Shown here: positions 8,388 to 28,840 of the stretch, one piece after another
Layout of the letters: each line of letters starts with the position of its first letter
How positions within the stretch are numbered: position 1 is the stretch's first letter
Source of the DNA: Candidatus Hydrogenedentota bacterium
GTDB lineage: Bacteria; Hydrogenedentota; Hydrogenedentia; Hydrogenedentales; SLHB01
Direction: 5' to 3'
Length of the DNA stretch: 64,000 nucleotides
Assembly: GCA_963745075.1 (NCBI GenBank)
Contig: CAVUWV010000030.1
Coordinates: forward strand, 1-64,000
The notes under the pieces: model-generated
The model's database searches: none
What the model was told of the DNA's origin: nothing
Seen by the model: only the letters and a program-made list of their open reading frames with translations
Translations under genes and position numbers: made by a program

Positions 8388-9702
8388 ATGCGATTGGGAA
8401 TGATATGGATGGCGATGGTGCTGTCGTTGACCGCAGTCGGCGGCGCGGCGGAGCCCGAGGCCACAGTATCGGAGATGGCAAAGGCTGTCGAGCGGCCGGC
8501 CGGTGCGCCGCGGTATAGCGACGTGAGCATGCGCCTGTTTCGGAAGTACGACGACGGCCGGGAACTCGCAGCGGCGGAGGCTTTCCACATTACGCGGGCG
8601 GACTGGTCCTACATTCGGGACAAGGCGTATATCGAGGCCATTCACGACCGCGGCTGGACCTTTCAGGGTTCGACGAACGCGGTCACGCACAATCCGGAAT
8701 TTGCCCTTAAAGACGAGAACGGTGAGCCGGTGCTCGACCATTTCAAGAAGCCCGGCCGATTCTGGTCCGACTGCACCAATTCGGCCTATCGGGATGCGTA
8801 CGTGAACGAGTTGCGCGACTGGGTCGCATGCGGCGTGGACTCGATCCAGCGTGACGAACCGACGGCCATCCGGCACTGGAGCATTCCGGATGCCGTTGAC
8901 TTTTTCGAAGACGTGCACGGGCGGCTGAGCAAGGCCGTAGGACGCGACGTGCCGATGTCGGTCAATCTCGCGTGGAACAAGTCTGTCTTCGGCGGGGACG
9001 GCGAGCCAATCACGCGACTCTTCGATTTTGGGATGGCGGAGTTGGGCAGCAGGCACGTGCGGCCGGAGTTCTTCGTGGAGGCCGCGAATGAGGCGGCGCA
9101 GCGGCGGTCGTGCATCGTTTATACCAGCTATCAGAAGATGGATATCCCCACCTACCGGCGCGCCATTGCCGGCTGCTACGCCAACGGCATGCTGTTCATC
9201 GTGCCTTGGGACCAGTATGCCGGCACGCAAAACCCACGTGTATTCAGCGCGCCCGAGGACCTGGCCGATTTATACGGTTTCGTGCGTGGGAGTGCAGCCT
9301 TCCTTGACGGGTACGAGGCGGTTACCGCAACGGGCCAAGGGCTGGGCGCCAGTGAGGCATTGTCACTTGAAGATGCGGACGGCAAGACCGCTTGGGTGCG
9401 CGCGCAGCCGGGAGAGACCGACGCGCCGGTGGTCATCCATCTGGTCGACTGGGACGAGCCTAATGCTTTCCGCGTCCGTCTGCGAAATGACTCGTTCTTC
9501 CCGGGGAAGAAACTTGCGGTGGAGTTGCGACAGCCGATGCCGTACGACGCCGCAGCGCACTCCGCGGCGGAGGCGACGTCACACGTACGGTGACCTGGTG
9601 GCAGCTCAGCCGCTGGAAGTCGAGAACGATGGGCGGTCGTCGCAGGTGTCGGTGCCGGCCATTGGGCCGTGGGCGATGCTCATCGTTCGGGCGGACGAGT
9701 AG
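8388..9702 (+). CDS. Secreted hypothetical protein (possible TIM-barrel glycoside hydrolase-like); frameshift near 9580
   Basis: AAGGAGA SD; signal peptide; GVDSIQRDEP; C-terminus continues in a shifted frame (HTYGDLVAAQPLEV...PWAMLIVRADE). Confidence 0.65.
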
Positions 9703-9814
9703 AAAATCCAGATGGTAAGCGGGCGGAACGCTTGCGCTACATCGATAGCCATCGTTGGGGCGTTTTACGTCAGAATTACCGTTGGTCAATTCCCGAAATA
9801 CCGAAGATGAAATT

Positions 9815-9863
9815 GCGCGTGCTGTGCCCCGAAATTGGATATTGCACGGGACGCAGCACGCGT
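9815..9863 (-). terminator. Stem-loop downstream of the 32-aa micro-ORF
   Basis: gcgcgtgctgtgccccg ... cgggacgcagcacgcgt, an imperfect 17-bp stem. Confidence 0.55.
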
Positions 9864-9897
9864 TTCCTTCGTTCAATGGGTACGTTTCGAGAAAACC

Positions 9898-9996
9898 TTA
9901 CGAAGAGGTGGGTTTCATTTTGACCGGTTTCATCTTTGCCGGTGCACCCGCGATCGCCGGGGGCGAGAGCTTCGAGATCTTCTTCAGGTGTTTCAT
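9898..9996 (-). CDS. 32-aa micropeptide MKHLKKISKLSPPAIAGAPAKMKPVKMKPTSS (candidate precursor peptide A)
   Basis: Own translation; AAAGGAGA SD 7 nt before the ATG; 57 bp after the asnB stop on the same strand; similar to the peptide at 28706-28840. Confidence 0.7.
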   Translation of the reverse strand: MKHLKKISKLSPPAIAGAPAKMKPVKMKPTSS

Positions 9997-10053
9997 ATCC
10001 GATTCTCCTTTGTCTGAGGCCCACTCCCCAAATGATAGCACGAATTCATCCGT

Positions 10054-11973
10054 TCAGCGGGAGTGTTTCTCCAGGTTGGCGTCAAATTCCTGAACGTAGA
10101 GGCGCTCCAGGATTTGAACGGTCAGGATGAAGACGAGAAGGGTATTTACGGTCTGCTTGGTGCGGCCGTTGAAGGAGACGAGTCGAGCGAGGAGCCGCAA
10201 TAGCGCTATCGCGCGATGATTGAACAGCCCGCTCTGTTTGATGGCCGCCTTGGAGAGATAGGTGTCGATCAGCCGGTCAAGCTCCGGAGACTGGCCCTTT
10301 CGGATTCGAAGGGGCGGGGCGGCGTAGGCCCATTTCTTCCGCTGATAGATTTCCTCGGTTAACTCGTCTTTGAAGGCTTCACGAAGGACCTGTTTCTCGA
10401 TTCCCGTCATGGATTTTGTGGTTGTCGGGGATGGTCCGGGCTTTCTCAAAAAGCACGTGATCCAAGAACGGCGTACGACCTTCGATGGAGTGCGCCATTT
10501 CCGCCCGGTCGCCCAGGGTGGACAGGATGTAGTGGGCCAGGACGGATTTGATGCAATAGTGCTGGATCTTGGCGGACCAAGGGAAGTCCGTCGGTTTGTT
10601 TCCGGTCGACCAGCCGGGTGAGTAGTGTCAAGGGATGGCTGACCCTGAGACGCGGCCGCTGTTTCGGGGCGAAGATCCGGCTGAGCACGCGCTGCTGAAA
10701 TGGGGTGAACGTGGCCGCGTACTCCCAGACCGGCAGGAAGCCCAGGGTCTCGACGATCTTGCGAACGGTTCGTCCCTTGGGCGGTTTGCGCACGATCGGT
10801 CGATTGGCCATTTGCCCGGTTATGGAACTCTTGCCGGGTTGGAAGTAGATGTAGCCGAGAAACACTTCGTCGGCCCCCTCCCCCGTCAGCACGACTTTCA
10901 CGTGTTCGGCCGCCAGACGGGACAGCATGAACTTGCCGACGCCGTGGAAGTTGGGGAACGGCAACTCGGAAACCCACAGGCACTCCTCCGTGTTGCGCAA
11001 GAAGTGATTCGCGGTCGCAGGAAACGGAATGAAACTCCGCGCCGATCTTTTCGGCCATGGCGCGGGACAACTGAAACTCGTCGTAGGTCGCGTCGTCCGG
11101 AAAGGCGATGTTGAAGACTTTGAGTTGGTTCGTGTGATGCTTCGCCACCAGCGCGGCCACGGTCGCGGAGTCGATGCCGCCGCTGAGATAGACGCCCACG
11201 GGGACATCCGCGCGGAGACGGAGGCGGACCGCTTCTTCGACGGCCTCCCCCACCGTTTCTACGCTGTCGCTGAAATCGGCCGACTCGGGAATGTCAGTGG
11301 CAGGCGGCAGATCCAGATCCCAGTAGCGGAGAACTTCGTGCGTGCCGTCCGTGACGTGCACCTTCAGCAGGCATCCGGGCGGCACGGCGTGGATACCCTC
11401 GAATACGGATTCGGGGATGACGCCGCTCAGGTAATCGCGGATGGCGATGACATCGATTCGGGGTCGGTGTTGTCCTGTCGCGAAAATGGCCTTGGCTTCC
11501 GACGCGAACAGGAAGCTGCCATTTTGCTCGTTGTAAAACAGGGGCTTGATGCCGAATCGGTCGCGCACGGCGAGTAGTATGCCGTTGGCCTTGTCGTAGA
11601 GCAGGAACGCGAACTCGCCGCGCAAGTGGTCTACGAAATCCAGGCCGTGCTCCTCGTAAAGATGGAGAATAACTTCCGAGTCGCTGCCCGTGGCGAACAC
11701 GTGACCCTTGTTTTGCAGCTCGCCTCGGAGCCGTTCGAACTCGTAGATTTCGCCATTGCAGACCAGGACCAGGTCGCGGTTTTCCGAGTACAGCGGCTGG
11801 GCCCCGGTTTCGAGGTCGATAATGGACAGCCGCGCGTGGCCGAGCCCGATGCGATTCTCGCTGTCAAGGTAGATGCCGGTTCCGTCGGGTCCCCGATGGC
11901 GCAAGGTGTTTACCGCGCGCTGGATTGTACGCTCGTCAAGGCGATGTCCGGCGAATCCTACGATTCCGCACAC
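10054..11973 (-). CDS. asnB: Asparagine synthase (glutamine-hydrolysing)-family amidotransferase with three +1 frameshifts
   Basis: MCGIVG Ntn Cys; HRGPD, RLSIID, NGEIY, RDRFGIKPL and LSGGIDS motifs; VLTGEGADE and GDRAEMAHSIEGRTPFLDH lie in the other two frames. Confidence 0.9.
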   Translation of the reverse strand: MCGIVGFAGHRLDERTIQRAVNTLRHRGPDGTGIYLDSENRIGLGHARLSIIDLETGAQPLYSENRDLVLVCNGEIYEFERLRGELQNKGHVFATGSDSEVILHLYEEHGLDFVDHLRGEFAFLLYDKANGILLAVRDRFGIKPLFYNEQNGSFLFASEAKAIFATGQHRPRIDVIAIRDYLSGVIPESVFEGIHAVPPGCLLKVHVTDGTHEVLRYWDLDLPPATDIPESADFSDSVETVGEAVEEAVRLRLRADVPVGVYLSGGIDSATVAALVAKHHTNQLKVFNIAFPDDATYDEFQLSRAMAEKIGAEFHSVSCDRESLLAQHGGVPVGFRVAVPQLPRRRQVHAVPSGGRTRESRADGGGGRRSVSRLHLLPTRQEFHNRANGQSTDRAQTAQGTNRSQDRRDPGLPAGLGVRGHVHPISAARAQPDLRPETAAASQGQPSLDTTHPAGRPETNRRTSLGPPRSSTIASNPSWPTTSCPPWATGRKWRTPSKVVRRSWITCFLRKPGPSPTTTKSMTGIEKQVLREAFKDELTEEIYQRKKWAYAAPPLRIRKGQSPELDRLIDTYLSKAAIKQSGLFNHRAIALLRLLARLVSFNGRTKQTVNTLLVFILTVQILERLYVQEFDANLEKHSR

Positions 11974-12410
11974 GTTTGAGTATCCTTCGAGTTACACTGC
12001 ATGCCCGATGCCGGGAATGGAGCGACGACAAGGGACTGAGCATCGGACCGCCATGAGCCCGCGTTGGATGAGCAAAGTACTCCGAGTGCACCGTCTTGCG
12101 CAATCCAACCCTTTCGTACAGGGTTTCTGTGAGAGATTGTAAGTCTGCTTTGCTATTCAAGAGGAACCATGTTGGACCGCCAAGAAACGAAGCGAATCGG
12201 GCGACCGATTGTATGTGCGATCGCGACCGTGGTTGCCTACGGCTACGTGGCATGCGCTCAGGTGCCGGAGGGTTAGGAGGGCGACCCGACGACATGCGCG
12301 AAAGCACTTCTACTTTACCTTGACGCAATCCCGGCACTGGTTTCTCTTTGTAGGGCACTGATAGTATATACTGAATATGTCTTACATGCGTCAGGCTGAA
12401 GGGAGGAATC

Positions 12411-16239: not shown

Positions 16240-17542
16240 CTACAACAAGCTGCGCTGGACCATGGTTTCGTAGACGCGGGTGAGGGCGACGTCGGTGCTG
16301 GCCTGGAGCATGGTGCGGCCTTTTTTCATGTGCGGCTGCATGGTGTCGAGCATGAGGTCGAAGCGACTGCGGATTTCGGCGAGGGTCAATTCGCGGGTGT
16401 ATTTGGCGCCGCCGAGGGCCTGCCGGTATTCGACGTTGGACGCGATGACGCCGCCGGTGTTGGCGTAGGTGTCGGGGATGACCTCGATCTTGCGTTGCTC
16501 GAGCGCTTTCATGCCGTCGTAGGTGACGGGCATGTTGGCGGCTTCGACGATGACGTTTGCGCCGAGGGTCTTGGCGTTGCGGCCGTCAATGACGTGTCCC
16601 CGGGCGGCGGGGATAAAGTAATCGCACTTCATTCGGAAGAGTTCTTCGTTGGTCAGGTTCTTGCCCTTGAACCCTTTGATACACCCTTCGCGTTCGCAAT
16701 GGTCGATAAGTGCGTGCACGTTGATCCCCGCGGGATTCTGGATGCCGCCGGTCATGTCGGTGACGCCGGTGATTCGGGCGCCGTCGTCGTGGAGCCATCG
16801 TGCGGCATGCGAGCCGACCTTGCCGAATCCCTGCAACGTAATTGTGCAGTCCTCGGGGGCAACGCCGCGCTTTTCCATATGCAGTCGTATGGCGTAATAC
16901 ACGCCGTAGCCGGTTGCTTCGGTGCGACCGGGCAGCCAGCCTTCGATGCCGTCGGGTTTTCCAGTGACCGACGCCGGGTCCTGCGTTTCGTTGTAGATGC
17001 AGACCATCTCGGGACCGCTGGTGCCCATGTCGGGCGCGGGAATGTATTCGTGGCGGGAAAAAAGGCGCGCGAAGTGGTGGGTGAACGCATCCATGATGTC
17101 GATTTTGGCGACGCGTTCGAATTCGCGGAAGGCGCCGTTGAACCGTTTGCTCTTGGTCATGAAGGTGTAGAGGGCGCGCAGATCGACGCTGATCCCAGAT
17201 TTGCCGCCGCCGAGTTCGAACGTCGGCCAAGGCGGTCTTCAAGGTCATGAGGCGGGCGAGTTCGGTGGTTTCCCAGAGGTCTACGTCGGGCGCGAGCCGG
17301 ATCCCGCCCTTGTACGGACCGCGGGCGCGATTGTGGAGCACGATCCCGGAGATGATGTTGACGACATCCCCCAGGATCGGTACGGGTAGCCGTTGGATAT
17401 GGATGGCATAGGGTTTGACAATTTCCAGTACGGCCTCGGGGTCGATTTTGAGGCGTTTCGCGCTCTCGTGAAGCAACATGGCGGAACGCGTTTGCGGTTC
17501 TTTGCTGCGGACGTAATCTTCGAGGCGGTTTCCAATGTTCAT
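16240..17542 (-). CDS. Glu/Leu/Phe/Val dehydrogenase; +1 frameshift near 17219
   Basis: GPYKGGIR, MTLKTA, (shifted) ELGGGKSG, PAPDMGT, TGKP, ATGYG, QGFGKVG and EAANMP motifs. Confidence 0.9.
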
Positions 17543-28705: not shown

Positions 28706-28840
28706 ATGAAGCACATCAAGGCATTGACGAAGGTCGATCCGCGGATGGCCGCAGCCCCGACGGGTAAGTGCGACACCATTCTGAAGACGCCGGAAGAGAA
28801 GGATGCGAAGAAGGCCGAGAAGCAGAATCCGAGCAGCTAA
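28706..28840 (+). CDS. 44-aa micropeptide MKHIKALTKVDPRMAAAPTGKCDTILKTPEEKDAKKAEKQNPSS (candidate precursor peptide B)
   Basis: Own translation; AAGGAGGTGA SD 5 nt before the ATG; G/C-ending codons like host genes; terminator behind; only credible gene found in a ~800-bp gap. Confidence 0.8.
   Translation: MKHIKALTKVDPRMAAAPTGKCDTILKTPEEKDAKKAEKQNPSS

Follow-up and report, generated by a model that had tools for sequence, protein, structure and literature searches.

The C-terminal amidotransferase of thiostrepton is of the AsnB type. The name TsrT designates a radical-SAM methyltransferase in PMC3454323. TsnB9 is described as a hydroxyamidotransferase in the accessible text of PMC13418202. 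AsnB-type enzymes encoded by unlinked genes, such as the polyene carboxamide synthase PcsA, can amidate finished natural products, according to the available part of PMC4540446. For the SCIFF maturase CteB, the accessible portion of PMC8326336 describes a precursor leader that binds the RRE as a beta-strand. In the selidamides, GNAT maturases attach fatty acids to side chains of Lys or ornithine in ribosomally made peptides, as set out in the available text of PMC8784127.

Here, a window of 64,000 nucleotides (the whole stretch of DNA analyzed) from a Candidatus Hydrogenedentota bacterium was compared with these systems. The genome of this DNA is referred to as G000, and other G numbers denote relatives in a survey of 135 genomes of the phylum. 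An earlier note had proposed that a hidden 32-aa peptide gene directly behind an asnB gene encodes a precursor whose C terminus is amidated by that AsnB. The features concerned were as follows.

9703..12410, no strand: variable site with the asnB and peptide block, from comparison with G105, G106, and G107
10054..11973, minus strand: class II amidotransferase with an AsnB fold (TIGR01536-type), in a clade with patchy distribution, from domain profiles and orthologue alignment
10032..10040, minus strand: extended -10 promoter-like motif TGCTATCAT, at -44, within the 57-bp gap between asnB and the peptide gene
10004..10011, minus strand: Shine-Dalgarno (SD) sequence AAAGGAGA, 7 nt ahead of the peptide ATG
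9898..9996, minus strand: MKH-leader precursor peptide, 32 aa, KPVK subfamily, from the ORF, profile, independent contig, and existing gene call
9816..9862, minus strand: hairpin, likely a terminator and possibly two-way, between the peptide gene and a convergent gene, from fold statistics
28706..28840, plus strand: second MKH-leader family member, 44 aa, with a different core, from a syntenic orthologue in G106
G000 C20, ~133.7-140.6 kb, strand not given: distant RRE/SPASM-GNAT cassette, from domain search

The peptide gene itself was largely as the earlier note had it: a 32-aa ORF with an SD sequence starts 57 bp past the asnB stop on the same strand, and the product contains 8 Lys and no Asp or Glu. 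It is not hidden, because NCBI/ENA already has a gene call for the identical protein; no Pfam or NCBIfam match to the peptide was found. A 276-bp contig from an independent soil metagenome run (X1) spans 9762-10037 with six substitutions and no gap and confirms the peptide reading frame; this contig ends before reaching asnB. The hairpin reported after the gene is real, with a 15-bp stem (9+6 bp, one mismatch), a 15-nt loop, and a z score of -5.0, and none of 200 shuffles was equally stable. It was missed by a simple terminator scan because the loop limit of the scan is 8 nt. Among the 29 other KPVK genes, 5 have the TGCTATCAT motif between -44 and -47, and none of these 5 follows an asnB (background, 64 of 5,000 random 110-nt windows). 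The presence of the motif in the gap at -44 here suggests a separate transcription unit for the peptide. Taken together, the motif, SD sequence, ORF, and hairpin make the gene look like a self-contained promoter-SD-ORF-hairpin unit. No hairpin was found in the 57-bp gap, so read-through from asnB into the peptide gene is also possible.

The peptide fits the layout of a large family, in which a leader of the form MKH[VLI]KxxSK ends in P-x-x-A and is preceded by an SD sequence. It consists of a 16-aa leader and a 16-aa Lys/Pro-rich core on either side of the predicted cut site. In a genome-wide PSSM search of G000, 15 SD-led small ORFs scored 18.8 to 30.0 and the next one 12.5; the peptide scored 29.8, and 32.0 bits in a second profile search. 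About 26 MKH-leader genes are present in G000 when divergent and GTG-start members are counted, and they sit beside unrelated genes. The leader DNA pattern was found in 127 of the 135 Hydrogenedentota genomes, with near-empty reversed controls. Seven pattern matches in two genomes from outside the phylum were rejected as family members. The leader is conserved and the cores are extremely diverse. The likeness that had been seen between the peptide and the micro-ORF at 28706 reflects common membership in this family; the shared "SS" end is due to chance, since the G106 orthologue of the latter ends otherwise. The conserved 16-residue leader supports the term "precursor peptide," as does its occurrence in a large set of paralogues with a link to a RiPP-like cassette. 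The MKH leader had no Pfam match, no PDB chain was found with the KPVK profile, and an ESM Atlas search returned unnamed matches alone, at 0.81 or below. No description of the MKH-leader family was found in the literature searched, to which most subscription journals and all supplements did not belong. Apparently, these peptides form an undescribed RiPP-like system, with this peptide in a new substrate subfamily.

This KPVK (Lys/Pro-rich) subfamily comprises 30 genes in 10 of the 135 genomes, from three genera. Residues M1, K2, H3, P13, A16, and K26 are invariant among 20 aligned genes, and the cores contain 3 to 6 Lys. Asp or Glu follows residue 16 in 22 of the 29 other genes, and the C termini are ragged (12 different last residues among 29 genes). 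In G110 (L278:702-1139, plus strand), a KPVK leader and core of 28 aa run straight into a self-cleaving chaperone domain (Peptidase S74), and the same fusion is cut by a contig end in G109 (L356:3-362, minus strand). The fusion (PF13884, E 1.9e-16) adjoins a free KPVK gene and was found in 2 of the 135 genomes, both of one genus; S74 autocleavage would leave a C terminus like that of the free KPVK peptides. Peptide arrays also lie behind M4 proteases on C9 and C18 of G000 (L012:7708-9200 and L011:7493-7910, both plus strand). Their N termini are picked up by the MKH leader profile, in part because several had been among its seeds, and the arrays may be a divergent branch of the family.

For the neighboring gene, the claim that AsnB keeps its N-terminal Cys was borne out, as the product starts with M-C-G-I. 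Three +1 frameshifts in the gene (near 10997, 10574, and 10403) had been overlooked. In the assembled 639-aa ORF, residues ~326 to 524 are out of frame, and the scrambled ORF stays open because the three shifts sum to +3. Pfam and NCBIfam matches end near residue 327 and resume in another frame, and intact orthologues align in four pieces (frames -3, -1, -2, and -3). When the gene is read through with X, all 123 clade-invariant columns are intact, and the product is 89% identical to an intact 638-aa homologue (P0014). Frame switches were found in 7 of 23 tested G000 genes, and all nine switches were +1; broken-gene calls in this assembly thus need care. The left flanking gene (9571-9702) and a Glu/Leu/Phe/Val dehydrogenase gene (16240-17542) are also split across frames. 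No near-identical X1 contig was found within asnB, at a depth of ~3 that makes this absence uninformative. The asnB frameshifts are likely assembly errors. Very recent decay is less likely and is kept in view because three shifts in 1.9 kb exceed the ~0.4 expected from the other 22 genes (own arithmetic).

The intact orthologues identify the enzyme as a member of TIGR01536, with an N-terminal Cys glutaminase and an Asn_synthase domain and with scores of 424 to 459 bits against a cut-off of 267. The best PDB match was the hydroxyamidotransferase 7YLZ (E 2e-62), followed by asparagine synthetase B 1CT9 (E 6e-48). The most likely role of AsnB is amidation of a small molecule or of a carboxylate in the envelope. 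In G099 and G095 (L046 and L047), which belong to the same genus, the asnB orthologue and a pair of MMPL and LolA-like genes are divergently oriented, which may point to a lipid or envelope substrate. In G100 (L053:7859-8530, minus strand), the orthologue encodes 224 aa, owing to an in-frame internal deletion or misassembly.

The proposal that the peptide is modified by the adjacent AsnB was not supported by the other members of the AsnB clade. These occupy 10 loci in nine other genomes of the phylum (62 to 71% identity over the N-terminal half), and a downstream peptide, which the earlier note had suggested looking for, was present at none of the nine loci with at least 500 bp downstream; the G098 locus, with ~170 bp, was left out of this count. 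A peptide lies just upstream at 1 of the 10 loci (G085) and is of a different subfamily. KPVK genes and the AsnB clade each occur in 10 of the 135 genomes and overlap in G000 alone; G106, which is 99% complete, has four KPVK genes and no AsnB-clade orthologue. No AsnB-like sequence was found in the fetched flanks of other KPVK genes (50 loci; 60 overlapping loci): apart from the locus studied here, the 60-locus search matched just the G101 asnB, which had been included deliberately, and several flanks were shortened by contig ends. Likewise, no leader gene was found at 21 generic AsnB paralogue loci.

The AsnB clade also occurs outside the phylum. Some 95 proteins with at least 49% identity fall within it, including ones labelled Nitrospirota, Syntrophobacteraceae, Haloferula, and Bdellovibrionota. 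At least nine non-Hydrogenedentota genomes, with completeness not given, carry the clade without the cassette maturase (one weak SPASM-only match), and the genes lie among unrelated neighbors there. A metagenome scan with the AsnB alignment gave, among the matches listed, one close full-length locus (L057); the matches listed in the metagenome and genome scans sample the clade incompletely.

In G085, two tandem MKH peptides and then a hairpin lie between rapZ and the asnB orthologue (L048:6852-7158, minus strand). The peptides end ~180 bp upstream of asnB on the same strand, and their cores are acidic with two Cys, unlike the KPVK core. The G085 AsnB is 58% identical to that of this locus, and in a tree of unnamed homologues only, it groups with peptide-free orthologues and not with the AsnB of this locus. 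From strict-pattern counts, rough arithmetic puts the probability that an adjacency like this arises once in 10 loci by chance at 0.04 to 0.1. Another candidate, a second peptide on C13 of G000 that lies 1.3 kb upstream of another AsnB-like gene, was rejected in favor of conserved synteny: all 30 loci with units of this type have dtd beside the AsnB-like gene, and 4 of the 30, all of one genus, have the peptide. On C13 (L007:2808-7060, minus strand), the divergent AsnB-like gene lies directly behind the D-aminoacyl-tRNA deacylase gene (dtd) and is followed by formyltransferase and GT2 genes. Between the MKH peptide and dtd is a hydrophobic ORF of 24 aa that is preceded by a strong SD sequence (L007:7162-7236, minus strand).

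The site itself varies among relatives. In G105, of the same genus, the asnB and peptide block is missing and the flanking genes are ~135 bp apart, and in G106 and G107 other genes occupy the site; the block is therefore lineage-specific. Since both genes are missing at the empty site of G105, they may have arrived together, and a lineage-specific block fits either joint or separate arrival. At this locus, asnB is probably a chance neighbor of the peptide gene.

A more general partner for the leader is offered by the cassette on C20. There, a pair of leader peptide genes is followed by genes for three GNATs, a protease of the CAAX/Rce1 type, the ATPase and permease of an ABC transporter, and a maturase of 659 aa. 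The maturase is a CteB-like RRE/SPASM protein that lacks the CxxxCxxC motif and is fused to a GNAT-like domain, which brings the GNAT domains to four. It matches CteB (5WGG) with an E value of 1.5e-20 over the N-terminal and SPASM parts, the three SAM-cluster Cys being absent, and its C-terminal acetyltransferase-like domain gives a weak match (E 0.035). The maturase occurs in 123 of 135 genomes, mostly with one match each, and the GNAT-fused form is kept across the phylum. Six of the eight genomes without a leader-pattern match are also among the 12 without the maturase, five of them of one genus. Among the matches listed, a leader gene precedes the maturase by 4 to 6 kb, with both on one strand, in at least 16 of 62 genomes, a floor because the strict pattern misses the two cassette leader peptides of G000 itself. 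KPVK genes never adjoin the cassette at the loci surveyed, and a complex prediction with the N-terminal 98 residues of the maturase and the KPVK alignment reached 0.27, against a mark of 0.32. On the grounds of co-distribution and linkage, processing by the RRE/SPASM-GNAT cassette is likely.

In our judgment, the peptide is probably a self-contained member of the phylum-wide MKH family that is processed at a distance by the single-copy cassette, with AsnB as an unrelated neighbor. The cassette RRE would bind the MKH leader, the CAAX-type protease would cut after P-x-x-A, a GNAT would acylate the new N terminus or the core Lys side chains, and the ABC transporter would export the short cationic (lipo)peptide. 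This chemistry is modeled on CteB leader binding and selidamide acylation, and we put it at slightly less than an even chance. Against processing at a distance without AsnB are the G085 adjacency, the joint absence in G105, the gap without a hairpin, and the occurrence of TGCTATCAT in just 5 of 29 genes. It is rather unlikely that the leader is a mere export or cleavage tag, or that the peptide is an unmodified small basic protein binding nucleic acid, the ribosome, or a membrane, with no GNAT acylation of KPVK. Such a role would suit the extreme diversity of the cores, the KPVK genes never found beside the cassette, and the fusion to a self-cleaving S74 domain in G109 and G110, but the four GNAT domains of the G000 cassette, the phylum-wide retention of the GNAT-fused maturase, and a leader conserved while the cores diverge argue against it. 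That the ORF is an untranslated chance frame is highly improbable: the lack of a Pfam or NCBIfam match is outweighed by the strong SD sequence, the clear PSSM score gap, the 30 homologous genes that keep frame and motif, and the frame kept in X1.

A role for AsnB would be that of an optional tailoring enzyme beside MKH precursors, possibly recruited twice (here and in G085), which activates the C-terminal carboxylate by adenylation and then forms the amide using ammonia from glutamine. The same strand and 57-bp gap, the loss of both genes at the G105 site, the second adjacency with a non-sister AsnB, and the retained catalytic Cys and invariant columns in the read-through product all favor it, and the PcsA precedent for unlinked genes keeps it under consideration. 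On the other side, KPVK and the clade meet in G000 alone, orthologous loci have a peptide in 0 of 9 cases downstream and 1 of 10 upstream, the G085 cores differ from the KPVK core, and the clade is present in phyla without the cassette system. In addition, a Pfam scan of the neighbors found no RRE or protease beside asnB, and a single adjacency could arise by chance at the rough rate estimated above. We therefore consider this role improbable. A combined form seems no likelier: a phylum-wide acylation and export line in which one catalytically dead radical-SAM protein would recognize the SCIFF-like leader encoded by dozens of scattered, freely evolving genes, KPVK included, and in which AsnB was recruited beside precursors in some lineages for a C-terminal amide.

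The AsnB-peptide pair is probably a false lead, and recognizing it as such spares co-expression effort with a gene that carries frameshifts. The system left standing is RiPP-like and present in about 90% of the phylum genomes, with one maturase, 20 to 30 unlinked precursors, and unrelated core types. Should the cassette indeed cleave and acylate such varied cores, guided by a 16-residue tag, its tolerance as a peptide-acylation tool would be unusual, and the radical-SAM scaffold would have taken on a new fate. The linear 16-residue KPVK core would be a simple substrate for its chemistry.

Compared with known systems, the locus resembles lasso cyclase systems (NF033535 and NF033561) in that an AsnB-like fold adjoins a small ORF. 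It differs from them in that both cut-offs were failed by three intact orthologues (213 to 227 against 525 bits for NF033535; 48 to 67 against 300 bits for NF033561), the glutaminase Cys is kept, no leader peptidase (B) or RRE genes were found at the locus in the Pfam scan of neighbors, and the peptide has no Asp or Glu and hence none at core position 7 to 9. Lasso chemistry, which the earlier note had already disfavored, is thus excluded. As for the AsnB-type amidotransferases (7YLZ, PcsA, and the thiostrepton enzyme), the intact orthologues pass TIGR01536, and the clade has no conserved biosynthetic neighbors.

The MKH leader may resemble SCIFF leaders; it has no Pfam or PDB match. The accessible text of PMC8172795 added nothing on the MKH leader. 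The cassette maturase aligns with the SCIFF/ranthipeptide system CteA-CteB (PDB 5WGG; TIGR03974 and NF040492) over the N-terminal RRE and SPASM regions. Unlike the SCIFF maturases, however, it lacks CxxxCxxC, carries a GNAT-like domain, and reaches 77.6 against 425 bits for TIGR03974; the KPVK core has no Cys where the SCIFF core has six, and the MKH precursors are scattered in 20 to 30 copies. In the selidamides, the precursors are of the Proteusin/Nif11 type and the cores are cyclic, whereas the MKH leader is short and the core linear, and the cassette GNATs, which are predicted to acylate, are RimJ/RimL-like (PF13302). As in the selidamides, GNATs are present in the cassette, and the KPVK cores offer them 3 to 6 Lys.
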